A stretch of DNA of 56,544 bases. Origin: an uncultured archaeon (GTDB lineage: Archaea > Asgardarchaeota > Heimdallarchaeia > Heimdallarchaeales > Kariarchaeaceae). A program made the position numbers and the translations under genes. Below the pieces are notes generated by a model. The model saw only the letters and a list, made by a program, of their open reading frames with translations. It did no database searches and was not told where the DNA came from. How positions within the stretch are numbered: the first letter of the stretch is position 1; each line of letters starts with the position of its first letter. The stretch is taken from assembly GCA_964645535.1 (NCBI GenBank), contig CAZYCQ010000004.1, positions 30,874-87,417 of the forward strand, given 5' to 3'. This document shows, piece after piece, positions 1,899 through 56,491 of this stretch.

Positions 1899-1965
1899 AA
1901 GATTCGATCAAATACACCTTATGGAACTGGAAACTTTTTTTAGATGAATACCCATGTCACCCTGT

Positions 1966-3228
1966 ATGTCTGAACAAATTACAAAAATCAGAGCGAGAGA
2001 AGTGTTGGATTCCAGAGGAAATCCCACCGTCGAATGTGAAATTTTCACCCAAACATATCGATCCAGATTTATTGTTCCTTCCGGTGCTTCAACCGGACAA
2101 TATGAAGCTGTGGAATTGAGAGACAACGATCCGAACCGTTTCCATGGGAAAGGTGTTCTCAAGGCTGTGTCAAATGTCAACGATACCATTGCTCCGAAGC
2201 TAATCGGAATGGATCCTACAGACCAAAAAACCATAGACAGTATCATGCTCGATTTAGATGGCACCCCAAACAAAAGCAATCTTGGTGCAAATGCAATTCT
2301 TAGTGTTTCGGGTGCAGCTGCAAGATTGGGCGCAAAAGTTACAGGCAAACACCTCTTTGAGTATCTGGGAAATTCAAAGCGGCTTCCAACACCATTGCTG
2401 AATGTAATCAATGGAGGAAAACATGCCGGTGGAAATCTAGCCATCCAAGAATTCATGATAGTACCCAAAGGCTTTGATACTTTCTCTGAAGGATTGAGAG
2501 CTTCATCAGAGGTCTACCATTCACTGAAAAAGTATCTCAAAGAAAAATATGGAAGCAGTTCAATCAATGTTGGAGATGAGGGTGGCTTTGCTCCTCAATT
2601 GGACTATGCAAAAGATGCTCTTGCCGCCTTGTCAATGGCCATAAACAATGCAGGCTATGAAGTCGGAGAGCATTTCTTCTTTGCCATTGATGCAGCAGCC
2701 TCGGAATTTCTTCATGATGGAAAATATCGAATTGATGGAATGGAACTTACGGCAGATGAACTTCTCAATTATTATCTTTCTCTCATAGATGAGTACCCTG
2801 CTTTGATTTCCTTGGAGGATCCATTTGATGAGAATGACTTTGAATCCTTTGCAAAGCTTGTGAAAAAAATCGGAAAGGAAAAGGCAATTGTAGGGGATGA
2901 TCTCACTGTTACAAACGTTGAACGTATCAATACTGCCATACAACATCAAGCAATGAATTATCTCCTTCTCAAAATCAACCAAATCGGAACCCTCACCGAA
3001 GCACGAAATGCATTTGATCTAACAAAATCGCAAAATTGGGGTGTTGTTGTCTCTCACAGATCCGGAGAAACAGAGGATGCTTTCATTGCTGATTTGGCAG
3101 TGGGATGGGGAGCAGAAAGAATTAAGACTGGTGCTCCTGCAAGGTCTGAAAGAGTCGCAAAATACAATCAGTTATTGAGAATTGAACATCTATTGGGTGA
3201 AGAAGCAAAATATTACAAAGGAATGTAG
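1966..3228 (+). CDS. eno: Enolase (start may be 1954 or 1966)
   Basis: AREVLDSRGNPTVE, VPSGASTG, NVINGGKHAG, GDEGGFAP, LLKINQIGTLTE, SHRSGETED, IKTGAPARSER. Confidence 0.99.
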   Translation: MSEQITKIRAREVLDSRGNPTVECEIFTQTYRSRFIVPSGASTGQYEAVELRDNDPNRFHGKGVLKAVSNVNDTIAPKLIGMDPTDQKTIDSIMLDLDGTPNKSNLGANAILSVSGAAARLGAKVTGKHLFEYLGNSKRLPTPLLNVINGGKHAGGNLAIQEFMIVPKGFDTFSEGLRASSEVYHSLKKYLKEKYGSSSINVGDEGGFAPQLDYAKDALAALSMAINNAGYEVGEHFFFAIDAAASEFLHDGKYRIDGMELTADELLNYYLSLIDEYPALISLEDPFDENDFESFAKLVKKIGKEKAIVGDDLTVTNVERINTAIQHQAMNYLLLKINQIGTLTEARNAFDLTKSQNWGVVVSHRSGETEDAFIADLAVGWGAERIKTGAPARSERVAKYNQLLRIEHLLGEEAKYYKGM

Positions 3229-3306: not shown

Positions 3307-4731
3307 ATGTCTCACTTCATACATAATGGCAAAAGGATCGTTATCATTGATGATTCACTCTATCAAAGGGAAATCCTGTTTAAACAACTTACTGAAGATG
3401 GTTATGACATTGTCGGACTGGCCGAAAATGCAAAAGACGGTTTCCGTGTAGTTGCAACCGAACGACCAGATTTGGTAATTGTTGATTTGTCCTTGCCTGA
3501 TCTTCCTGCTGAAGAAGTCATTAGAGGGATTAAATCCATAAACCAAAAAATATTCACCGTGATTTCAGCACCTCTCGGATACGAGGAAGATGTCAATTTC
3601 TTGATGCGCCTTGGATGTGATGAATTTCTTCCCAAACCCATTGAAACCTCCCATCTTGAATATATTCTTAACAAATTCGAGGTTTTGAATTTCCCGAAAG
3701 TCGAAAATCGAACCATCGGCATCAATTTCCTTCATCAAACCTTTTACAATCAAATGATTCAATATGCAAGTGATGACATAAAAAAAATCATCAGCAAAAC
3801 CATCGTTCAACACAGCAGAACTTTGGCTAGAAAATACCCTGAACGTTTCTTTTTTGATGCCAGGCGAAATTATCTCCATGTTATTCTCCCACATAAACAA
3901 GGTGATGGTTCCAAAAAATTTGAAAAAGTGATCGTTCGACAATTGGAAAACCTTCTCACTCGTATCCTCAACAGTTTGGAGAAGAAAATCCCAATTGAAA
4001 TGCTTCTCTCTCTACTTCATGAAAGTTTTCTTTCTTATGCATCACTTGTCAAACCAGTTGCTGATTACTATGATTACGATTTTCCAGATTGGAAATCGTT
4101 CAAGTTTGAGGTTACTCAACCCGACTATCTGTCAAGACAAAAGACCAAAATTGAATACATCTCAAACTCGGAATTCAATTGGCCAGAAATCCCTCAATTT
4201 GCAGAAATCCAAAGGATCAATGCCTATCGGGTTGATGAAAAGGGAGATTTCCCTCAAAGAACATTGAAAGAGACTGCTCACAATATCCATATAGTGCTCT
4301 CAGTATTCGATGAAATTTATGGTCCAAAAGTTGGTATCACTAGACCACCCAACGTTGAAGACCGGCTTAATCCCATCCTCCGGATAATTCCCAGTTTGAT
4401 GGATAGACAAGGATTGAAGGAAATGGATCCCTTTCTTTACAGTGAAACAGATTTTGGCTGCCTGAACCTAGTCTTTTCCGTGAAAAAAGAAGGTCTGAGA
4501 GGAAGCCGCGTCGAAATGATGATTTCAATCTTGATCACTCCCATTACCACAGAAATTCTTCTCAAACTAAGCCAAATGAAAGGAATTCTAAGGGCAATTG
4601 CCGCTCAAATCCGATTCCATGTTGAGGAATCTGAATATTCCAATCCTGAAGAAATACTGACTTTTCAATCGGAAATTTCTGACCTTCTATCGGTTTTCCA
4701 CCATGAAGTAAGAAGTTTTATGGAATATTGA
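3307..4731 (+). CDS. Response regulator: CheY-like receiver, helical middle domain and C-terminal longin/uDENN-like domain
   Basis: The receiver is clear (IIDDS, VIVDLSLP, VISA, LPKP). The C-terminal IVLSVFDEIYGPKV...GLRGSRVEMMISILI resembles uDENN motifs; the output-domain call is inference. Confidence 0.8.
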   Translation: MSHFIHNGKRIVIIDDSLYQREILFKQLTEDGYDIVGLAENAKDGFRVVATERPDLVIVDLSLPDLPAEEVIRGIKSINQKIFTVISAPLGYEEDVNFLMRLGCDEFLPKPIETSHLEYILNKFEVLNFPKVENRTIGINFLHQTFYNQMIQYASDDIKKIISKTIVQHSRTLARKYPERFFFDARRNYLHVILPHKQGDGSKKFEKVIVRQLENLLTRILNSLEKKIPIEMLLSLLHESFLSYASLVKPVADYYDYDFPDWKSFKFEVTQPDYLSRQKTKIEYISNSEFNWPEIPQFAEIQRINAYRVDEKGDFPQRTLKETAHNIHIVLSVFDEIYGPKVGITRPPNVEDRLNPILRIIPSLMDRQGLKEMDPFLYSETDFGCLNLVFSVKKEGLRGSRVEMMISILITPITTEILLKLSQMKGILRAIAAQIRFHVEESEYSNPEEILTFQSEISDLLSVFHHEVRSFMEY

Positions 4732-19638: not shown

Positions 19639-21093
19639 ATGGTTACCCTTTCAGGTGAGGAATCACAAGAGATTGCAAAATCTACGATCTCTAAAGAAAT
19701 TATTCTTCTGCTTATTTCGACATTGCTGCTCCGAATTGGATTCGGTGCAATTTTGATTCTCTTCGATTGGACACTCGTCTGGGGAATTGAACATACTCTG
19801 GGTGTGGAAGCTCATTCTAGTGTCGAATCAATTCTTCTGACATCTTTTGCTGCAATTACGTATCTCATTGCTGAAATATTGATGACTGGTTACTACGGTA
19901 ACAGATCTGACAAAGTAGGAGCAAAACCCGTGATTCTTTTCGCAACGATTGGCTCCTTCATTGTGATTCTTCTCTATATGCCCTCAACATTGATTTTTGA
20001 TGCCTTTTACCTTACCTCCCCCATAGTTGCTCTTCTTTTGCTGACTGGCTATCTTGCTTTAATCCATTTCATCCATGGGGTCTTTGCAGCTGCAAAAGTA
20101 GCTCCAACCCTTGGCTTCATAAATCATTATTCTGATGAGACGAACCGGACACTACATATGGCCTATTTTGACAACGCAATCCTGTATGGAAGAGCTTTGG
20201 GGATGATGAGTGGTGCTTTCACTTGGATATACTTCAAAGTTGATCATGCTCAGGATGTAATTGTGCAATCTCGGAGAATTTCACTTGCTTATGTCCCACT
20301 TTCTGTTTTGCTTCTTGTTGCAAGCCTGATAATCTATTTTGGATTAAACAATACCCCTACCATTGAAGAACCAAAACCATTTAACCTTAAGGAAGATGTA
20401 AAAATTGCATTTTCCGTCATGATGAAAGAAGAAAGGAGACCTTTGCTTCTTCCATGGCTTTCCATTGCAGCATTGATCGGATCCGCTTCAATTTGGGGCC
20501 CTTCCGTTGCATTTAGGATTGTAGGCGGAAAAGATGGACACAACAATGACCGTGGATTTGAAGCCATACTTCCAATAATGGTCATACTGTTTGCTTTAGC
20601 CCTACCTGCACCTTTTTGGGGGTGGTATGCTGACCGACACGGAAAGAAACGCACAATGACCATTGGGCTTTTCGGTATTCCAATTGCATTGGTATTGGGT
20701 TTGGCAATTGGCTTCCCATTTTATGGAGAGGCTTTGCTTTCCCAAGAAGCCTCGATCATCAGCAATATTCCGTTCCTCGCCTCCTTAGCTCCTGCTATTT
20801 TCTTTTTCTCGTCCTTTATTCCGGTGCTTATTGGATCCTTGGGTGAAACTGCCCATCGAGAAAAGAAGGAAGATGGACATGTCATGTCAGGGTACCACTT
20901 CGTGATCGCAATGGGTGAAATCATCGGAATCTTGGGTGGTGGATTGTTTATTGGTCTATTTGCCCTGTTCCATCAGATCAACTTGATTCCTGACGGAAAC
21001 CTTGCCCTCTTGGTCGGTTTTGTCTTATTCGAGTTGATATTGGTGGCGGGAATGACACTGGGTATTCTCAGACTTCCAGATAGATATCATTAA
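19639..21093 (+). CDS. MFS transporter
   Basis: About 12 TM helices; motif A occurs twice (GNRSDKVGAK, GWYADRHGKKR). Confidence 0.92.
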   Translation: MVTLSGEESQEIAKSTISKEIILLLISTLLLRIGFGAILILFDWTLVWGIEHTLGVEAHSSVESILLTSFAAITYLIAEILMTGYYGNRSDKVGAKPVILFATIGSFIVILLYMPSTLIFDAFYLTSPIVALLLLTGYLALIHFIHGVFAAAKVAPTLGFINHYSDETNRTLHMAYFDNAILYGRALGMMSGAFTWIYFKVDHAQDVIVQSRRISLAYVPLSVLLLVASLIIYFGLNNTPTIEEPKPFNLKEDVKIAFSVMMKEERRPLLLPWLSIAALIGSASIWGPSVAFRIVGGKDGHNNDRGFEAILPIMVILFALALPAPFWGWYADRHGKKRTMTIGLFGIPIALVLGLAIGFPFYGEALLSQEASIISNIPFLASLAPAIFFFSSFIPVLIGSLGETAHREKKEDGHVMSGYHFVIAMGEIIGILGGGLFIGLFALFHQINLIPDGNLALLVGFVLFELILVAGMTLGILRLPDRYH

Positions 21094-21170
21094 TTGGTTA
21101 CTTGCTAAGAAATTTTCAAGATTGCATTGATTAACTTAATAACTGAAGTAGAAAATTAGTAATTTGTAAA

Positions 21171-22451
21171 GTGACACCTGTCATCAATTGTGTTATTGTC
21201 GATGATTCCCTTTTCGTCAGGAAGACCTTGGAGTCCCTCATTAAAAGCTTAGGTCACAATGTCTTGGCTTCTTTCGACAATGCGAAAGACGCGATTGACA
21301 ATATTCTTGACCTTCCATATGACATTATTTTTCTTGACATCATTCTCCCTGATATTTCCGGTCTTGATGCATTGAGGAAAATCTTTAACCTTCAACCTGA
21401 TGCTAGGGTAATAATTCTGTCTGGCTTGGGAGATGAAGATGTCATCAATGCAGCTCTGCAACTTGGTGCAATTGATTACATCCAAAAGCCAATTGATGAA
21501 ATCCAGTTAAGAAAGGTAATCGAAACAGTCATTGAATCATATTATTCACTTGATGCAGTCACCCTTTCTAAAATTGAAGCTACTGCAAAATTAACCTCTC
21601 TTCTCTTCAATGAGATTCTAGCCATTAGCAATTCGCAAGTACGACGGGTCGTTAAAAGCCAGATTGAATCTATTCTATTGAATCCTCCCCCTGTGATCCC
21701 AAAAATGTTCAATATAGATGTGGAAAACCTTGTCCTGTCAGCAAAAGAGGAAATTTTTGGTGTTTATGAGGAAGATGAAGTCATTTATTCACTCAGAAGT
21801 TTGATTGATATTCTCAAAGACGAACTTACGTTTATTTATAGTGAAGATTACGTGGAAAAGCTATTTCAATCTGCCATGCTCGCTTTAGTTTCCAAACAGG
21901 CGACCGCTAAACTTGTTGCTCAAATTGATCCAAAGGAATTAGGTGTTTCACTTCCTGAGAAAATAGACTATGAAAAATTCAAAATCTATATGGAACAGGC
22001 ACAAGAGGAAATTGAGGACAATTTACTTCTTGCTACCGTTTTTTTCGGACAGATCGGACCCGAAATCAAAAATATGCTCGGGAATACCGAATTGGTTCCA
22101 GAAAATGTAATTGTCAAATCTTCAATTTTCTATTTAACCTTGGTAGGATTCGGAGAGGAGAAAAAAGGACTTTTTGGTCCTCTGCCTGCATCTGATCTCA
22201 ACGAAATCTCTGCCATTTTTTACTCTCTCTATCCTATGGAAAGCCCAGACAATCCATCCCCAATAAGCACAATTCTTGTTTTGTTCTATAGGTTTACCGC
22301 TGATCGGATTGTCGAAGATTTCAATCGTATTAATTTTATCTTTCGAACTCGACTGGCAAAAGTCCAGTACCTGTCCGATATTTCAAAGGTTCTTTTGAGA
22401 GGGATTATGGAAGATATCATTGAAAATTACAGGGATCTAGAGGATGTATAG
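21171..22451 (+). CDS. Response regulator: CheY-like receiver, helical middle domain and C-terminal longin/uDENN-like domain
   Basis: Receiver VIVDDS, IFLDIILPDISG, IILSG, IQKP. C-terminal LLLATVFFGQIGPEI...GLFGPLP. Same architecture as 3307-4731. Confidence 0.8.
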   Translation: MTPVINCVIVDDSLFVRKTLESLIKSLGHNVLASFDNAKDAIDNILDLPYDIIFLDIILPDISGLDALRKIFNLQPDARVIILSGLGDEDVINAALQLGAIDYIQKPIDEIQLRKVIETVIESYYSLDAVTLSKIEATAKLTSLLFNEILAISNSQVRRVVKSQIESILLNPPPVIPKMFNIDVENLVLSAKEEIFGVYEEDEVIYSLRSLIDILKDELTFIYSEDYVEKLFQSAMLALVSKQATAKLVAQIDPKELGVSLPEKIDYEKFKIYMEQAQEEIEDNLLLATVFFGQIGPEIKNMLGNTELVPENVIVKSSIFYLTLVGFGEEKKGLFGPLPASDLNEISAIFYSLYPMESPDNPSPISTILVLFYRFTADRIVEDFNRINFIFRTRLAKVQYLSDISKVLLRGIMEDIIENYRDLEDV

Positions 22452-22521
22452 CTCCATTTTCCTCCTTTTGATGAATATACCCTTATATATTAATCTGTTC
22501 CATATGCAATAGAAGGAAAAG

Positions 22522-23091
22522 ATGGCACAAACCAATCCTCTCCAAGATATGAAACAGTATAAAATCGTAATCGCAGGTGAAACTGGCGTCGGAAAGACAA
22601 CCCTCCGCTTGAGATACTTTGGGGGAAAATTCACAAAAAATTATATCCCCACTTTAGGTGTTGATTTTTCAGTGATGAGAAAAAAAGTTTCTGAAGGATC
22701 ATATGCAGAAATTCAAGTTTGGGATATGGCTGGACAGATGACCTTTCAATCTCTTCGAAAAAGATTCTTCCTTGGGGCATCATCGCTGTTCCTAGTTTAT
22801 GATATCACAAACCGTGAAACATTTGAAAAATTGTTTGAATGGTTTGATGATTTTTGGGTTTCATACAATAATAGACCTGATGTTCCCTTGGTACTGATTG
22901 GAAACAAAATCGATCTTGGAAATCCCCAAGTCTCTAAAGAGGAAATGGATGGCTTTTGGGAAGAAGTGCGCACTAACTACCCTGAATTTAAAGGAAAAAC
23001 AACCTCAATTTACACATCCGCTCTCAATGGCTATAATGTAAGAGAAGTCTTTGATTTGACAGTACAGGAAATATCTAAACTCTATAAATAG
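22522..23091 (+). CDS. Rab-like small GTPase
   Basis: GETGVGKTT, YIPTLGVDF, WDMAGQ, GNKID, TSAL. Confidence 0.95.
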   Translation: MAQTNPLQDMKQYKIVIAGETGVGKTTLRLRYFGGKFTKNYIPTLGVDFSVMRKKVSEGSYAEIQVWDMAGQMTFQSLRKRFFLGASSLFLVYDITNRETFEKLFEWFDDFWVSYNNRPDVPLVLIGNKIDLGNPQVSKEEMDGFWEEVRTNYPEFKGKTTSIYTSALNGYNVREVFDLTVQEISKLYK

Positions 23092-24204
23092 CTAAAAAAT
23101 AACATCCAATGATCTTCTTACATCCACTCCCATTGTGAATACAAACAGCAATGCACTGGCAAGGAACATGGTCAACGCTTGCCACCCTTTCAAATATTTC
23201 ATCAGAAATTTGTCTCTTCCTATACTCGGAAATATTTCAACTAAAACATACATTGCCAAAAAGTTACTGAATAACCGTAAGGCAACTTGAATCTCTGGAT
23301 TGAGGGATCCTGCCAAATAATTCATGATGAAGCCGATAATGAGTATCAAGACCAGGAAATCTCTCTTGACCTTTGGATATGCAATTCGGAAGTAATACTC
23401 GACTCTGCTTATCTGCTGGTTCTTGAATTTCCTTTGATCAAAATTTTGTACAAGGATCACATTTGATTCTTTCAGTGTTGAACGTTCCTTGTTTTCCTTA
23501 ATTGAAACACCGACATAAGAGACAAAAAAGGTAGACAGAACCAAGGATGCCAATAAATCAAACCGTGAATAATGAAAATCAACTGAAAAGCCATAATCTT
23601 TTAACCCATGTCTGAACCAAATTATATGAAACAACATAAAACTTGACATGAGAACAGTTCCTATTATCCACGTAAAAAGTGGTGGAAAAGCATCAAACAG
23701 GAGCATGAATTTGAAACCAAGAGATAAAACCAATACACTTGAAATAAAAATCATCACTTTCCGATCATATTTACCTATCCACTTATCCTCCGTTGGAATA
23801 ATCATATCTTCATAAATGGCTCCTTTGACCTCCTTTCTTATAACCGGAAACGACGGTGCTGGAGGAAATGTTGTCGGACTTCCTTGTTGATAGAATTGTT
23901 GTGATGGCTGATTGACATTTGGCACTGGTTGGAACTGAGTTGGAACAGAAGGTGTTTGAGAAGGTTGACCAGTAACATTCAATTGATTTCCACAATTTTG
24001 GCAGTATCGTGAATCTCTTGGATTGCTAGATCCACACTTTTCACATATCTGCCCCTTGTCATCAGGTTTCTCAGTCTTTTTGACCGGATGGCCGCAAATC
24101 CCGCAAAATTTTGCGTCTTTGGACAATGTGTTTCCGCAGGACTCACATACTGGTTGACTCACATGTGTGAAACTCTTCAAGGGCTTAAAACAAAATCGAT
24201 TCAA
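23092..24204 (-). CDS. Double zinc-ribbon membrane protein with a Q/P-rich linker and an M50-like TM domain (start probably the GTG at 24162)
   Basis: CESCG..FCGICG and CEKCG..YCQNCG, then a Pro/Gln linker and about 6 TM helices. Confidence 0.8.
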   Translation of the reverse strand: MNRFCFKPLKSFTHVSQPVCESCGNTLSKDAKFCGICGHPVKKTEKPDDKGQICEKCGSSNPRDSRYCQNCGNQLNVTGQPSQTPSVPTQFQPVPNVNQPSQQFYQQGSPTTFPPAPSFPVIRKEVKGAIYEDMIIPTEDKWIGKYDRKVMIFISSVLVLSLGFKFMLLFDAFPPLFTWIIGTVLMSSFMLFHIIWFRHGLKDYGFSVDFHYSRFDLLASLVLSTFFVSYVGVSIKENKERSTLKESNVILVQNFDQRKFKNQQISRVEYYFRIAYPKVKRDFLVLILIIGFIMNYLAGSLNPEIQVALRLFSNFLAMYVLVEIFPSIGRDKFLMKYLKGWQALTMFLASALLFVFTMGVDVRRSLDVIF

Positions 24205-42345: not shown

Positions 42346-43119
42346 TCAGATCCTGAGCATTCTTGGATTGCGGTACAGCGCCATTTCATTTGAATCAACT
42401 TTTAGTGGCATTTCCTCCTTCTTGAGCTGATCAAGCTTTTCTTCAATTCTTTTTTCAATATCCTCTAAAAATCGATTTGCCCCTGCAAACGCAATAAGAC
42501 AATTTTCCAGTTCATCAGGAAGGTCATGCTGTTCCTTGTCCAATCTTATTGTATATTTCCCTCCAATGTTGAACTTTGATCCATCTATTTCACCAATCTT
42601 GTTCTCAGATTGGTTATAGATTGCCCAATCCTTACCTAAGGTTAGGCGATCCTCTTCAATTCGGAAGATGTGAATCTCATCCTTCTCATCATCTACCACA
42701 AAGAGGCTGTAGACATCCTTGCCAAGAGACGCATGTCTGATAACCTTCTCAAAACTAAACAATACCTTCGAGTTTGATGAATTCATAATGAAAAATGGCA
42801 TGGGTTTGTTTGCTGCCAATGAATTGGCAAGTTCTTTTGCAATCAGCTCTTCGAATGAAGCCTTCCATCGAATGCTTTCTGAAAAAAGCTTGATTATTAA
42901 TCCACCCTTTGTACTATCATCCTTCCACTTTTCTTCACGATATGTCAAATAGGCTACTGTCTTTCCGTCTTTTTTGGCTTCTCCAAAGAATTCAGTGTCC
43001 TTAGTGAACTGTCGTGATTTTGACATATGCTCTTCCTGTTTCTTCAAACCAATATTGACTGAATGGGTGCTAGTTCTCCACAGGTCTACTTCAATTTCTT
43101 CTGACCAACCCATACGCAT
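42346..43119 (-). CDS. Hypothetical beta-rich protein, possibly tubby/LURP-one/scramblase fold
   Basis: C-terminal WAIYNQSENKIGEIDGSKFNIGGKYTIRL followed by the hydrophobic helix LENCLIAFAG. Confidence 0.55.
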   Translation of the reverse strand: MRMGWSEEIEVDLWRTSTHSVNIGLKKQEEHMSKSRQFTKDTEFFGEAKKDGKTVAYLTYREEKWKDDSTKGGLIIKLFSESIRWKASFEELIAKELANSLAANKPMPFFIMNSSNSKVLFSFEKVIRHASLGKDVYSLFVVDDEKDEIHIFRIEEDRLTLGKDWAIYNQSENKIGEIDGSKFNIGGKYTIRLDKEQHDLPDELENCLIAFAGANRFLEDIEKRIEEKLDQLKKEEMPLKVDSNEMALYRNPRMLRI

Positions 43120-43180: not shown

Positions 43181-43744
43181 CTAAGACCTTTGCTCATTCG
43201 CCTTCAAATCTTCAATCATCTTGTCAAGAAGAAGTTCAAAAGCCTTTTCGATATTGTACCCTGTAAGGGCTGAAGTTTCAATGAAGAAGACTGAATTGTT
43301 GAACTTATTTGCCAATTCAATTGCTTTTTCTTTTCCCTCTTGAACCGTGATATACTCATCTGTACTGTCTCTGAGATCCACTTTGTTTCCCGCGAGAATT
43401 ATGGGTACATTCCCCTCTGAATGGTTCTTCATTTCTTCAATCCATCGTGCAAGATTATCAAAGGATTCTCTCATGGTGATGTCATATACCAAAACAGCCC
43501 CTTTGGCACCCTTGTAATAGTTGGAACGAATCTGGTCAAATCCTTTCTGACCTGCTAAATCCCAGATCAATAGCGAATGACCCTTCATCTCCTTTAGAGA
43601 GAAATCAACGCCGACCGTCATGAAATACTTTTGATTGTAGCCTTTTCCCATAACCCTGTTCTTGATGGATGTCTTCCCCACCCTCGCATCTCCTAACAAT
43701 ACAACTTTGAACCTAAAACTTTCTCCCGTATCCGAGGAAGACAT
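43181..43744 (-). CDS. Rab-like small GTPase
   Basis: FKVVLLGDARVGKTS, TVGVDF, IWDLAGQ, YYKGAKGAVLVYDIT, GNKVDL, ETSAL. Confidence 0.96.
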   Translation of the reverse strand: MSSSDTGESFRFKVVLLGDARVGKTSIKNRVMGKGYNQKYFMTVGVDFSLKEMKGHSLLIWDLAGQKGFDQIRSNYYKGAKGAVLVYDITMRESFDNLARWIEEMKNHSEGNVPIILAGNKVDLRDSTDEYITVQEGKEKAIELANKFNNSVFFIETSALTGYNIEKAFELLLDKMIEDLKANEQRS

Positions 43745-43913: not shown

Positions 43914-45905
43914 ATGGATAAAGCCATTCAAGAGCAAATCGATCAGGTTTTATCAAAACTTGATTGGTCATTGACCCCTGAACAAATCGACAGGCGGACA
44001 AAAGACATCATTAATTCTACCCTGAAAGCAATTGAAAACGTAGAGAGCATTGCCCCTGAAAATCGTACATTTCAGAATACAATGGAAGAACTCGAAAGAA
44101 TTGTCGCTGAAGCAGGCGATCGATTTGCATCGGTCTACTTCCCATCATATGTTTCAACCGATCCGGAAATCAGAAAAGCCAGCAGCAATGCCGTGAAAGA
44201 ATATCGAAAATTCATGATTGAACTATCTATGCGCAAATCACTTTATGAAGCAGTCAAACCCCTTGAAGCACAAAAAGATAAATTCAATCCTGTTGAGAGA
44301 CGCCTGCTGGAACGATACCTCCGTGACTTCAGAAGAATGGGTCTTGATCTTCCTGAAAAAGAACAAAATGAACTGAAGTCTTTACTGCAAAGAATGTCCC
44401 AGTTGTCAGTCGAATTCCAACAGACTTTGAACGAAATCACCGATACAGTGGTCTTTTCTCCTGAAGAAATGGATGGAATCCCTCCAAACACACTTGAAAG
44501 CTATAGGAAAGATGAAAATGGAAATTACATTGTTGGAATGTCCTATCCAGAAGTCTTCCCAGTTATGGAATATGCAAAAAATCCAGAAACACGCAGAAAG
44601 CTTATGCTAGTCTATGGAAATAGAGGTGTGGCACAGGGGAACGTGGAACGGCTGGAAGAAATGATTCAACTAAGAGCAAAAGCCGCCAAAATCAGAGGAT
44701 ATGCAAATCACGCAGAATATGTTTTGGAAGAACGGATGGCAAAACATCCAGACAATGTCTTTGATTTTCTCAATGATTTGGAAAACAAATTGAAGCCATT
44801 TGGCCACAAAGATCTTGATACCCTCCAAAAACTTAAGGCAAAAGACCAACCTGAAGACCAGCAGATAAAGGAATATGATTTTCAATACTATATCCGGAAA
44901 CATCTTGAAGAGGAATACAGGATTGACAAGGAAGAAATTAAGCAATATTTCCCGATGGAGCATACAGTCAACGAAATGCTAAATTTCTATCAATATATTT
45001 TCGGATTTACTTTTACTGAACTTCAGGATGCCAACAAGTGGCATGAGGATGTAAAGGTATATGCAGTTCAGGATACCGAAACCAAGGAATTCAGAGGAAT
45101 TTTCTTCTTGGATCTATTCCCCAGAGATGGAAAATATAACCATGCTGCTGCCTTTACGCTGATCAAAGGTCGGATGGAAAATGGAGCTCATGTCCCCACA
45201 GCATCTGCAATGGTTACAAACTTTAACAAACCAACTGAAAATAAACCTTCTTTGCTGACCCATGCCCAAGTCAATACTCTTTTCCATGAATTTGGTCATA
45301 TCATCCACCAAGTGACAACTAGATCCAGATTTTATACATTCTCCGGATCTTCCGTCTCAAGGGATTTTGTTGAAGCGCCCTCTCAGATGCTTGAAAATTG
45401 GGTATGGGAACCTGTAGTTCTGAATCGTATCTCCAAGCACTTCGAAACAGGTCAACCCCTTCCGGAATCCCTTCTCAACAAGATGCTTCGAGCAAAAAAT
45501 GCTATGGCTTCCCTGAAGTACTTGAGACAAATCTTTTTTGGAAAATTCGACATGACTGCACACACGCAAGACAAAATAGATTCCGCTTCTCTCTGGCATA
45601 AATTGCGAAAGGAAATCACCCTCATTCCATCCACAGAAGGAACCAATCCTGCCGCAAGCTTTGGTCATATCATGGGAGGTTATGACGCAGGTTACTATGG
45701 TTACCTCTGGAGTGAGGTTTTTGCTCAGGACATGTACTCACGGTTCGAAAAAGAGGGACCAACCTCCCGTCAGGTAGGAATGGAATATCGAAGATTTATT
45801 CTTGAACCCGGAAATGACATTGAGGAAGAGGAACTCTTGCGGAGATATCTCGGAAGAGAACCAAACAATGAAGCTTTCCTTAAATCCTTGGGTCTCAAAC
45901 CATGA
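43914..45905 (+). CDS. M3A oligopeptidase (thimet oligopeptidase/neurolysin-like)
   Basis: LDLFPRDGKYNHAA, FHEFGH, RDFVEAPSQMLENW, SFGHIMGGYDAGYYGYLWSEV. Confidence 0.95.
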   Translation: MDKAIQEQIDQVLSKLDWSLTPEQIDRRTKDIINSTLKAIENVESIAPENRTFQNTMEELERIVAEAGDRFASVYFPSYVSTDPEIRKASSNAVKEYRKFMIELSMRKSLYEAVKPLEAQKDKFNPVERRLLERYLRDFRRMGLDLPEKEQNELKSLLQRMSQLSVEFQQTLNEITDTVVFSPEEMDGIPPNTLESYRKDENGNYIVGMSYPEVFPVMEYAKNPETRRKLMLVYGNRGVAQGNVERLEEMIQLRAKAAKIRGYANHAEYVLEERMAKHPDNVFDFLNDLENKLKPFGHKDLDTLQKLKAKDQPEDQQIKEYDFQYYIRKHLEEEYRIDKEEIKQYFPMEHTVNEMLNFYQYIFGFTFTELQDANKWHEDVKVYAVQDTETKEFRGIFFLDLFPRDGKYNHAAAFTLIKGRMENGAHVPTASAMVTNFNKPTENKPSLLTHAQVNTLFHEFGHIIHQVTTRSRFYTFSGSSVSRDFVEAPSQMLENWVWEPVVLNRISKHFETGQPLPESLLNKMLRAKNAMASLKYLRQIFFGKFDMTAHTQDKIDSASLWHKLRKEITLIPSTEGTNPAASFGHIMGGYDAGYYGYLWSEVFAQDMYSRFEKEGPTSRQVGMEYRRFILEPGNDIEEEELLRRYLGREPNNEAFLKSLGLKP

Positions 45906-47187
45906 GATTGGAAAGTTGTAATGCATTGAACAATGTCTCTATTGTATTCTGTATCTCATCAATCTGACCTTTGAAATTTTGAATCAAGTCTCCACATTCA
46001 TCAATTATGCGTTCCGAAAAAACAAATAGCTTTTGCTTGACATGATGTGTCGGAAACCTTACCATGGCAATCACAGAAACGTCCTTGACCTTTTCAACCA
46101 AAATTGTTCCTTCCACATTCTGTATTTGCTTGATGTCTTGATGAGACAGCTCATGAATCACAGTTTGGACTCCTGCCAATGCCGGTGCAAATAGGGATCT
46201 TGGAGAATTCGGATTGAATGTCTTGGAAAATCTTGAGAAGAATTCTGTTCCATCATCACGAACTACCATAATCCATTGTATCAACCCTTCATGCACTATT
46301 TCCTCAATCAAGGAAAATGCACTTTGCAACCTCCTCTGAACCCTATCAAAATTTTTTATGCCCTTTCCTTTTCGTAATACAAGTTCTCCTAATTTTCCCA
46401 TTTCGTAGAATGGTTTGTAATCGAATTCATTGTCCTGTTGGATTGATAGTCTTGCAATAAGCTTTTCGAGCTGTGCCACTGTGGATTTGACGCGGGTGGT
46501 GGGAAGAAAATTGTGGGAGAGCAAGAGAATTCTTGCGGCATGGATGACAAAAGTGGAGATTAACTCCAATTGCTCCTCAAAGGATAGATTGGAACCATGT
46601 CGGGTCAGATGTTCAAAAGACGCAACTACATCGCCGTAATCATTTTTATATCTATTTTCTGCCCAAGGATTGACTCCCACGATCTTTTTTAGTGTGACCA
46701 TGAAAAGATTGTCCAAAGTCTCTAATTTTATCTCTTCAGTTTCCAATGAACGTATTATTCTATGGAGATCATCCACTATGGCTTTGAATGTACTGTTTGT
46801 ATACTCCAATCCTCTAAGCTTGCTCATAACATAGGCTTTAAGCCTTCTGAAATTGATAGTCTCTCTCTTTCCATTGGGCAAGACCAATCTTGTGAAATCT
46901 ATCAAACCTGCGGAAATCAAGGAAAACCTGTCATATCCCTTTTCTCTTAGGGCTTGATTGATCAGTCGGGCAACCTGCCTTGCAGAGATTCCTTTGCAAA
47001 GCGCCGGTCTTATTCTATATAATATCTCAATTGCCTCAAAGAATTCAACTCCAGAACGGATCATGTCTTCAAGAATTTTCCCGCTTGAAAATGGTTCCTT
47101 TCGTGGAGGTTCACCTAATGTAATTTCCTCAAAAACGCGGTCGAATTCTGCTTCTAGAATATCCCTGATCCTATTCTGGGAGACCAT
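45895..47187 (-). CDS. Tandem ATP-cone-like domains, a helical region and a C-terminal longin-like domain
   Basis: RKEPFSSGKILEDM...ISARQVARLINQAL and PNGKRETINFRRL; C-terminal IQWIMVVRDDG..FFS...LFAPALAGVQTVIHEL...IKQI. Confidence 0.65.
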   Translation of the reverse strand: MVSQNRIRDILEAEFDRVFEEITLGEPPRKEPFSSGKILEDMIRSGVEFFEAIEILYRIRPALCKGISARQVARLINQALREKGYDRFSLISAGLIDFTRLVLPNGKRETINFRRLKAYVMSKLRGLEYTNSTFKAIVDDLHRIIRSLETEEIKLETLDNLFMVTLKKIVGVNPWAENRYKNDYGDVVASFEHLTRHGSNLSFEEQLELISTFVIHAARILLLSHNFLPTTRVKSTVAQLEKLIARLSIQQDNEFDYKPFYEMGKLGELVLRKGKGIKNFDRVQRRLQSAFSLIEEIVHEGLIQWIMVVRDDGTEFFSRFSKTFNPNSPRSLFAPALAGVQTVIHELSHQDIKQIQNVEGTILVEKVKDVSVIAMVRFPTHHVKQKLFVFSERIIDECGDLIQNFKGQIDEIQNTIETLFNALQLSNLMV

Positions 47188-55038: not shown

Positions 55039-55926
55039 CTACCCTAATAGTTTGCGACGATTTGTAAATTCAACCATTTTTCCAAGTTCGATGTACTTCT
55101 GCGGCTCCCTTAATATCAAATCATATACTGTTTCCTCACCCATGAGAATCGATTTCACATTCGCCCCATCCAAATCAAACTCCCTTGTGATTTTTTCTGT
55201 AATCTTGGGGATATAATTCGTCAATTCCGTTTTGACCTTGACACGTATAAGATCTGTTCTCAAGAGTTTTTCCAAAGCACTGAAGTCCACCGTCTCATTT
55301 CTGGTGACAATGTGTAGCAGAAGGATCAGTGAAGATAGTTGTATGAACCCTTCTGAGGAATATTTTGCCAACACATTCTCCAATGACTGTTGCAATCTAT
55401 CATTTGGTTCATCCACTGCAAAAATCAACGCATATTGGTTGTCCAAGATGACCTGAATCTTCAAATCCGCAAAATCCACCGCAAAGGAATTTTTTGATTC
55501 ATAAAGCTGTTGAACCTCATGGATTTTCTTCAGCACATGTTCCAATAGGACATTCAGATTCATGCCTTCCGCTGCTATAAATTGCAAAACCATCCGGGAT
55601 GTGATGTCATAAAGATAAAAGAACAAAAATGGGTGTCTCTGAAGGTCACTTGTTTCCTCCACAGGTTCCAAATAAAAACCTGAAACATCCTCCAAAACCA
55701 ATCGTTCAGCATAGGCGTCTAGATGACCTCGATAGAGGCCTTTTGCATCAACAATGATTGAATTGACATGTCGCTCTTCATCAATTGTGTGCTCTACTCT
55801 GAACGATTGCAAAGACATTCCAAAAAAGGAATCATGGTCTTTCTTGGATATGTAAGTAGAAGGGTCTTGTATTGAAAATGAAACCTCCATCCCACATATT
55901 TTACAGGTGAATGAGGTCTGAACCAT
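55039..55926 (-). CDS. Hypothetical protein with an N-terminal CxxC...H..H putative Zn domain, coupled to the GTPase gene
   Basis: The ATG at 55926 lies just after the GTPase stop; FTCKICG...VEH...RHVNSIIVDAKG.YRG. Confidence 0.75.
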   Translation of the reverse strand: MVQTSFTCKICGMEVSFSIQDPSTYISKKDHDSFFGMSLQSFRVEHTIDEERHVNSIIVDAKGLYRGHLDAYAERLVLEDVSGFYLEPVEETSDLQRHPFLFFYLYDITSRMVLQFIAAEGMNLNVLLEHVLKKIHEVQQLYESKNSFAVDFADLKIQVILDNQYALIFAVDEPNDRLQQSLENVLAKYSSEGFIQLSSLILLLHIVTRNETVDFSALEKLLRTDLIRVKVKTELTNYIPKITEKITREFDLDGANVKSILMGEETVYDLILREPQKYIELGKMVEFTNRRKLLG

Positions 55927-55933
55927 ATTCAGG

Positions 55934-56491
55934 TTAATCACCACCAAAAGATCCAAGGTAATCAAATATTTCCTTTAGCCCCAACCCCGTTTTAAGACTG
56001 AGATCAAACCATCTGCTGATTTTGGGAACTGCAAGCTTGACTGAATCAATCATTTCCTCTGTGACATTCCGCTCTAAATCTAACTTGTTCTGGATAACAA
56101 TGAAAGTGGGCGGCTGCTCCCTTTGGTTTTCAAAATATTTGTTCACAAGAGAAAACCACACTTCTAAATCAAGAAAGGACTGCATCGAATTCGCGGCAAA
56201 CATCATGATGACGAGATCTGTACGACCAAGAGCTAGGCGTTCAAAGTCTTTGAGTGCGTGAATCGGAAGATCGATTTGACCTGCAACATCCATCATCAGA
56301 AATGAATTGTCATCAATTTTCAGTGCTTCAAATTCCATGAAAAGGGTGCGATGAAAATCAAGTTCCAATTCATCCAGCAATTTCCCGCTTTTGAGTACCT
56401 TCAGAAAACTGGTCTTCCCAACCGCCCCTGATCCAACAACAACGACTTTCGACAGTTTTTTCTTCTTCTTGACCGAAGCGAGGAAGTCCAT
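55934..56491 (-). CDS. Divergent Ras-superfamily small GTPase
   Basis: GSGAVGKTS, HRT, DVAGQ, NKLD, DLSLK; polybasic N-terminus KKKKK. Confidence 0.9.
   Translation of the reverse strand: MDFLASVKKKKKLSKVVVVGSGAVGKTSFLKVLKSGKLLDELELDFHRTLFMEFEALKIDDNSFLMMDVAGQIDLPIHALKDFERLALGRTDLVIMMFAANSMQSFLDLEVWFSLVNKYFENQREQPPTFIVIQNKLDLERNVTEEMIDSVKLAVPKISRWFDLSLKTGLGLKEIFDYLGSFGGD

Follow-up and report, generated by a model that had tools for sequence, protein, structure and literature searches.

The 56,544-nucleotide stretch of DNA analysed in this study (contig CAZYCQ010000004.1 of assembly GCA_964645535.1, positions 30,874 to 87,417 of the forward strand), in the following called the window, belongs to an uncultured archaeon of the Kariarchaeaceae (Heimdallarchaeales). 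The analysis concerns a protein composed of a receiver, a helical domain and a longin domain, which is named RR-A here and is encoded by the open reading frame (ORF) 21171-22451, and the Rab-like small GTPase gene 22522-23091 that follows it. Both genes lie on the forward strand with 70 bp between them, exactly as described in an original prediction made from the sequence, which had proposed that a phosphorylatable receiver is wired through a longin- or uDENN-type domain to the adjacent GTPase. Orthologues of RR-A with 82% and 67% identical amino acids have the same length as RR-A. The features of both genes are:

21171-22451, forward strand: RR-A gene (receiver - helical domain - longin), ORF with a GTG start, 426 amino acids
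21192-21521, forward strand: receiver (REC), residues 8-117, Pfam PF00072, with an intact phospho-acceptor pocket
21561-21950, forward strand: family-specific helical middle domain with a small beta-hairpin, residues ~131-260, from the AlphaFold2 model
22002-22448, forward strand: C-terminal longin domain, residues 278-426, with the order strand-strand-helix-strand-strand-strand-helices, from AlphaFold2, Foldseek and VIA-align
22056-22061, forward strand: GP motif G296-P297 in the hairpin between strands 1 and 2, from the family alignment
22239-22259, forward strand: short hairpin between strands 4 and 5 without a D-x-R motif, residues ~357-363, from the alignment and hmmalign of the paralogues
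22452-22521, forward strand: intergenic gap of 70 bp that contains a T-rich run at 22455-22469 and, at 22483-22493, a TATA-like box, from the sequence
22522-23091, forward strand: Rab-like small GTPase, 189 amino acids, a candidate client of RR-A (Pfam Ras, E 8.7e-37)

The receiver of RR-A was recognised by the Pfam model Response_reg with an E-value of 1.3e-24 (87 bits versus a cut-off of 30.2). Its pocket is complete and comprises D11, D12, D56 (in FLDII), S84, Y103, K106 and P107, each kept by 12-14 of the 14 members in the family alignment. The CheY-like receiver was therefore correctly predicted as intact, and judged from its sequence, RR-A encodes a working response-regulator receiver. 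An exhaustive phmmer search among 1.8 billion proteins yielded 13 representatives of the RR-A family at 50% identity; nearly all of these relatives consist of 411-433 amino acids and are fused to a receiver. The neighbour clusters of RR-A derive from Promethearchaeota.

Pfam did not assign any domain to residues 125-426, and this part was modelled by AlphaFold2 with the family alignment. The resulting model (predicted local distance difference test, pLDDT, 84.7) shows a helical domain with a small hairpin, followed by a C-terminal domain that covers residues ~278-426. The middle domain was also folded alone, with a pLDDT of 89.6 and a predicted template modelling score (pTM) of 0.84. A comparison with 48,161 PDB chains gave no meaningful match for it, and because the best Z score was just 5.8, the middle domain is regarded as being without a recognised known fold.

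For the C-terminal domain, the order of the elements assigned by DSSP fits the longin topology. A Foldseek comparison of the AlphaFold2 model, by which the original prediction had proposed to examine the fold, returned the longin domain of the Lokiarchaeal Roadblock-Longin protein (8yqg) as the top PDB match, followed by the longins of Npr2/3, Lst4, FLCN-FNIP2 and TRAPP. With VIA-align, at least ten longin entries were found at Z scores from 12.5 down to 9.0, among them 8yqg (12.5), Lst4 (12.0), the FLCN-FNIP complex (11.3), C9orf72-SMCR8 (10.5), the NPRL chains of GATOR1 (9.5) and sedlin (9.1). Roadblock chains (LAMTOR, MP1/p14; Z 6.3-6.8) scored well below the longins, and PAS-like chains also reached about 6.5. 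The best structural match, 8yqg, superimposes with a root-mean-square deviation of 3.2 Å over 134 residues; it is a dimeric protein of the same phylum, but shares only 13% identical residues with RR-A and carries a roadblock domain as N-terminal partner, where RR-A has the receiver and the helical domain.

In the ESM-Atlas, the neighbours of the RR-A longin were Asgard clusters, some of them with the tag Folliculin (in 23% of their members) or NPR2 (in 19%), as well as Asgard GTPase-longin fusions and the eukaryotic proteins SMCR8, DENND11 and Avl9. Searches of the PDB with phmmer and with profiles gave no sequence match to the C-terminal region at E ≤ 10, and none of the 26 aligned family members matched the Pfam families Folliculin (PF11704), NPR2 (PF06218) or C9orf72-like (PF15019) at E ≤ 1. 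By the fold of its predicted model, the C-terminal domain is confirmed as a longin of the FLCN/NPRL2/SMCR8/C9orf72 class. Of the uDENN/longin terminus proposed originally, the longin part is borne out by Foldseek, VIA-align and the Atlas, but the DENN part is not: RR-A has no DENN module, since the longin domain ends at the C-terminus of the protein (residue 426). This longin part is widespread in Asgard archaea; when 400 genomes from the phylum were searched with its profile, 99 contained it, with several copies in each, in proteins of about 175-300, 420-445 and 600-740 amino acids.

The string LLLATVFFGQIGPEI, with which the C-terminal domain had been said to begin, was found at exactly the predicted positions 22023-22067 and corresponds to residues 285-299 of RR-A. 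In the model by AlphaFold2, strand 1, the GP hairpin and the beginning of strand 2 are built from this string. Within the RR-A family, G296 never varies and P297 occurs in 13 of the 14 members; the GP motif is also kept in an alignment of 26 sequences with multiple architectures. A GP motif located in the loop that precedes strand 2 is specific to the GTPase-activating protein (GAP)-type longins FLCN, NPRL2, SMCR8 and C9orf72 and is absent from the longins of adaptin, TRAPP and DENND; it adjoins the arginine finger, and a class of Asgard longins possesses both features (PMC12290439). The use of this motif as a hallmark of the class in the original prediction agrees with that publication and with its conservation in the RR-A family.

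The longin sheet order places the hairpin between strands 4 and 5 beside the GP hairpin. An alignment of 26 Asgard longin domains shows a conserved D-x-R motif in this hairpin, a candidate arginine finger, which every other architecture aligned keeps; in the RR-A clade (11 of 13 receiver-fused sequences) the loop is shorter and contains neither arginine nor lysine. The genome contains 13 ORFs that match the longin profile, and hmmalign located D-x-R in 11 of them; it is missing in RR-A and in one other. Due to the loss of the D-x-R loop in its clade, RR-A is, as far as the alignments tell, unlikely to act as a stand-alone arginine-finger GAP. With the GP motif kept and the arginine-finger loop gone, it resembles C9orf72, and not SMCR8, FLCN or NPRL2. 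A catalytic arginine might alternatively be sought in the helix after strand 5, where R394 occurs in 12 and R or K392 in 11 of the 14 family members, at positions that the wider longin family does not conserve. A stand-alone GAP with an arginine of this clade-specific pair (R392/R394) would fit such conservation, but we know of no precedent for it and consider it highly improbable.

Beside RR-A, a second receiver-longin protein is encoded in the window:

3307-4731, forward strand: RR-B, 474 amino acids, with a receiver, a homologous middle domain and an NPRL2/SMCR8-type longin, from Pfam, alignment and Atlas

The receiver of RR-B (Pfam REC, E 1.3e-14) is intact in the family alignment, and the middle domains of RR-A and RR-B are homologous (hhalign 94.8%, E 5.6e-8). 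In the C-terminal region of RR-B, G339-P340 is invariant, and so is R398, which lies in a VRGG loop. The Atlas model of residues 327-474 matches clusters of NPRL2, SMCR8-like and Npr2p proteins with template modelling (TM) scores of 0.64-0.73. As the comparison of the longin profile with the RR-B family by hhalign was not significant (E 0.17), the assignment of RR-B to the longins is based on this structural match. With respect to the split between two longins in eukaryotic complexes, RR-A is similar to C9orf72 (GP, no arginine) and RR-B to SMCR8, FLCN or NPRL2 (GP and arginine). Altogether, nine receivers are encoded in the genome, and two of them, RR-A and RR-B, carry longin outputs.

Upstream of RR-B, a gene for a methyl-accepting chemotaxis protein (MCP) signalling domain is located at 798-1898, and an enolase gene (1954-3228) lies between them, as elsewhere in the genus. 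In a genome of another genus (G052, locus L068) the MCP gene directly abuts RR-B, which suggests a link of RR-B to a chemoreceptor.

For the distribution of these proteins, 47 genomes of the order were compared, which fall into the families f1 to f4; the genome studied here (G000) belongs to f1. Clustering of the neighbours of 22 loci revealed a recurrent protein of about 240 amino acids, in which Pfam identifies an Hpt domain and a P2 response-regulator-binding domain. Hpt and P2 are the first two domains of CheA. The gene of this Hpt-P2 protein is located at most 4 kb from the RR-A orthologue in 6 of the 13 genomes that possess it; the three genomes of genus g13 have it directly upstream and on the same strand, and in the genera g2 and g3 it is two genes away. 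RR-B and the Hpt-P2 protein were found in an identical set of 13 of the 47 genomes, namely this genome, 9 of the 11 others of f1 and all three of f4, and neither was found in any of the 32 genomes of f2 and f3. Full-length matches of RR-A are confined to f1 and f4 as well. In this genome, Hpt-P2 is encoded on contig 23 and a full CheA on contig 87. The occurrence of RR-B and Hpt-P2 in the same 13 genomes and the position of the Hpt-P2 gene near RR-A orthologues are new observations of this study. Copies of the Hpt-P2 gene were located at the following coordinates:

L063:6014-6775 (G000:C23:42558-43271)
L049:4798-5514
L052:2470-3186
L053:4215-4931
L044:1400-2104
L045:9630-10337
L047:10303-11010

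In family f4, a one-strand array (L049:4798-9464 and L053:4215-8997) consists of the genes for Hpt-P2, the receiver-longin protein, a small helix-turn-helix protein, TruD and a Rab-like GTPase. The GTPase of this array is the orthologue of G000:C3:25700-26245 and not of the GTPase 22522-23091.

The GTPase next to RR-A possesses the motifs GETGVGKT (G1), WDMAGQ with the catalytic glutamine, NKID and SAL, so that the Rab-like GTPase predicted 70 bp downstream on the same strand is substantiated by the Pfam Ras match and by its G1-G5 motifs. Orthologues aside, its nearest named relatives are Asgard proteins annotated as 'Rab family GTPase', and among eukaryotic proteins Rab-2A shows about 37% identity. 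The protein ends with ...SKLYK and has no C-terminal cysteine, so that it lacks a prenylation motif. The TATA-like box lies about 30 bp before the ATG of the GTPase gene and, of the whole gap, it is the part that the orthologues with 82% and 67% identity conserve; the GTPase gene may therefore have its own promoter. Among the datasets listed for 21000-23200, the only one with this DNA is a hot-springs metagenome, which may be its source, and none is an RNA dataset.

One explanation of this arrangement is a dedicated two-gene module, in which the phosphorylated receiver toggles the longin in the role of guanine-nucleotide exchange factor (GEF) or GAP for the adjacent GTPase. About 30 Ras-family genes are present in the 3.6-Mb genome, which corresponds to a chance of about 1% per gene and side that one given gene has a Ras-family neighbour. 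The pair, with its 70-bp spacing on one strand, is kept in the relatives with 82% and 67% identical proteins, longins are typical platforms for GTPases, and fusions of longins with GTPases occur in Asgard archaea. However, the close relatives share the entire order of genes for a major facilitator superfamily (MFS) protein, RR-A, the GTPase, a zinc-ribbon membrane protein, phosphoglycerate kinase (PGK) and a tetratricopeptide repeat (TPR) protein, and because the whole neighbourhood is syntenic, the adjacency in these genomes is not independent evidence. Among the 13 longin paralogues only RR-A adjoins a GTPase gene, versus about 0.2 expected by chance; for the others, the shortest distances are 2.6 kb and 10 kb.

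The comparison with other genera also speaks against a dedicated pair. Every receiver-longin gene taken from other genera has RR-A as its best match in this genome, but the reciprocal-best-hit orthologues in G045, G046, G047, G049, G050 and G051 have no GTPase gene within 6 kb. In G055, which belongs to the same genus and in which the positional orthologue of RR-A lies beside the MFS gene, that position lacks the Rab gene. The GTPase 2 kb downstream of the RR-A orthologue in f4 is orthologous to another paralogue (C3:25700). In favour of a pair, G052 provides the only case of an abutting GTPase in another genus; this protein has 47% identity, but its gene is arranged tail to tail with the regulator gene, and because the genes converge, they do not form one operon. 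The conserved TATA-like box and the T-run in the gap as well as the absence of the arginine-finger loop from RR-A likewise do not favour a dedicated module.

A prediction of the complex of the RR-A longin with the GTPase 22522-23091 scored 0.06 versus a mark of 0.32, which speaks neither for nor against binding. Strong Gtr1/RagA matches, as would be expected for a Rag-like partner, were not present near the RR-A orthologues of five genomes. In strain MK-D1, GTPase genes are generally not organised in operons with roadblock or longin genes (Tran et al.). Of the original proposal that the receiver-longin protein is wired to its neighbour, the adjacency here and in close relatives stands, but the orthologues in most other genera have no neighbouring GTPase. 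Synteny is thus weak support for a dedicated pair, and such a module is unlikely.

The missing conservation of this synteny and the loss of the catalytic arginine would fit a longin which serves only as a protein-protein or dimerisation output, like the longins of SNAREs and SRX. RR-A would then be a chemosensory or other adaptor that acts on no small GTPase and has the Rab-like gene as a chance neighbour; the conserved gene link of the receiver-longin proteins is indeed one to the CheA-like Hpt-P2 protein, and RR-B is encoded beside or near an MCP gene, so that the gene links indicate chemosensory partners and not GTPases. However, the GP motif, invariant in this family, is specific to longins that act on GTPases (PMC12290439), the top structural matches are GTPase regulators, and fusions of this fold with GTPase domains occur in the phylum. 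A role of RR-A without a GTPase is considered unlikely.

The reading preferred here is that RR-A serves in the regulation of small GTPases as a non-catalytic longin subunit or platform controlled by phosphorylation, with RR-B as its partner and a chemotaxis-type input; this is held tentatively, as a serious possibility that falls just short of even. RR-A would pair with the arginine-bearing RR-B in the manner of the catalytic pockets that eukaryotic complexes form from two longins. A chemotaxis-type relay of CheA and the stand-alone Hpt-P2 module would feed RR-A with phosphate or dock to it, phosphorylation of D56 would change the pairing or the presentation of the longin, and the adjacent Rab-like GTPase would be one candidate client. 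Computation supplied the motifs and domain identities, the loss of the arginine loop, the phyletic co-occurrence and the linkage of the Hpt-P2 gene; that RR-A forms a heterodimer and binds a GTPase, which way regulation runs and what donates the phosphate are predictions of this scheme.

Several points weigh against a partnership of this kind. RR-A and RR-B are only loosely linked, with a distance of 17 kb in this genome and a location on separate contigs in most genomes. In f1, this genome included, the Hpt-like domain has an aspartate at the position of the phosphorylated histidine, which f4 keeps, and Pfam detects only the P2 domain of the f1 proteins. Because of this replacement, the stand-alone Hpt-P2 module may serve here as an adaptor and not as a donor. 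The families f1 and f4 are possibly sister groups, in which case RR-A, RR-B and Hpt-P2 could co-occur owing to a single gain. The D-x-R loop, putatively the position of NPRL2 R78, is equated with the arginine finger of NPRL2, FLCN and SMCR8 on the basis of topology. Furthermore, the clade-specific R394 could provide RR-A with a catalytic arginine from another structural element, and an interaction of RR-A, RR-B and the GTPase is a prediction.

A more far-reaching version of the preferred reading is that RR-A without and RR-B with the arginine form a prokaryotic, phosphorylation-gated GAP similar to C9orf72-SMCR8, FLCN-FNIP or NPRL2-NPRL3, in which receiver phosphorylation through a relay of CheA and Hpt-P2 of the chemotaxis type assembles or opens a shared catalytic pocket for a Rab-like or Arf-like GTPase. 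Such a GAP appears quite improbable; if true, it would represent a switch from chemosensing to GTPases and a possible forerunner of the nutrient-sensing longin GAP complexes.

Fusions of NPRL2-like longins with two-component signalling domains in Asgard archaea were already described by Liu et al. (bioRxiv 10.1101/2020.10.19.343400, Fig. 5c; Nature 2021). RR-A falls under their definition, since its REC domain and its NPRL2-like longin are parts of one and the same Asgard protein; like RR-A, these fusions unite a two-component receiver with an NPRL2/FLCN-type longin, and their function was predicted from the domains. The description there comprises one sentence and the figure, and it does not cover the helical middle domain, the arginine loop lost in this clade, the co-occurring arginine-bearing paralogue or the link to Hpt-P2. 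The original prediction knew of no characterised protein with such an architecture. This holds insofar as no bench characterisation of a receiver-longin protein was found in searches of the full-text literature, but the architecture class itself is published. RR-A thus adds to a published class, with new detail and a testable hypothesis on pairing, and because the fusion class was already known, its value lies in testability rather than in surprise.

The eukaryotic complexes C9orf72-SMCR8, FLCN-FNIP2 and NPRL2-NPRL3 have the longin fold (Z 9.5-11.3) and the GP motif before strand 2 in common with RR-A (PMC12290439). Unlike these GAP complexes, RR-A lacks a DENN domain, has neither WDR41, DEPDC5 nor Ragulator as a partner, receives its input through a phospho-receiver and shows no match to them at the sequence level in Pfam or the PDB; a heterodimer and GAP activity are only predicted for it. 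In Myxococcus, the RomR/RomX-MglA-MglB system is analogous, as a receiver protein acts there on a Ras-like GTPase downstream of the chemosensory Frz system. RomR has no longin and the GAP MglB is a roadblock protein; the output domains are not homologous to that of RR-A, so that the likeness is one of analogy only.

Longin GAP complexes such as folliculin, GATOR1 and C9orf72-SMCR8 are central to nutrient signalling in eukaryotes, and their Asgard origin is so far a proposal. RR-A and RR-B, as a small soluble pair, would offer a tractable system for the question whether Asgard longins with a GP motif act on small GTPases. They would also bear on whether the split into catalytic and non-catalytic longins is older than the eukaryotes, and on how a prokaryotic phosphorelay came to control a longin module. 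The switch is testable, because phosphorylation of the aspartate can be mimicked by BeF3-, and about 30 candidate GTPases are available in one genome.

Some further observations concern the neighbouring genes and the paralogues. The window contains four Ras-family genes (125-733, 22522-23091, 43181-43744 and 55934-56491), versus about 0.5 expected in 56.5 kb. The ORFs beside two of these GTPases (42346-43119 and 55039-55965) showed no similarity to the longin profile in hhalign. On the reverse strand, the ORF 45895-47187 encodes a protein of 430 amino acids with a weak ATP-cone match (E 1.2e-5); its C-terminus, which had been proposed as longin-like, showed no similarity to the longin profile in hhalign (E 0.23). 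The gene 23092-24204, also on the reverse strand, encodes a double zinc-ribbon protein of 370 amino acids, whose hydrophobic C-terminal half looks membrane-spanning by eye. It ends one base past the stop codon of the GTPase gene, tail to tail, and this layout is kept in close relatives.

The longin paralogues of the genome (G000) include, among others, the ORFs at:

C7:11437-12312
C15:7452-8759
C31:2469-3647
C31:24234-25475
C1:92345-93289
C5:80579-81856
C22:3992-5218
C4:27690-28478

Most of the 13 paralogues with the GP motif consist of 260-436 amino acids and have N-terminal parts of no known kind. The paralogue on C15 (436 amino acids, no Pfam match) aligns also to part of the middle domain of RR-A.

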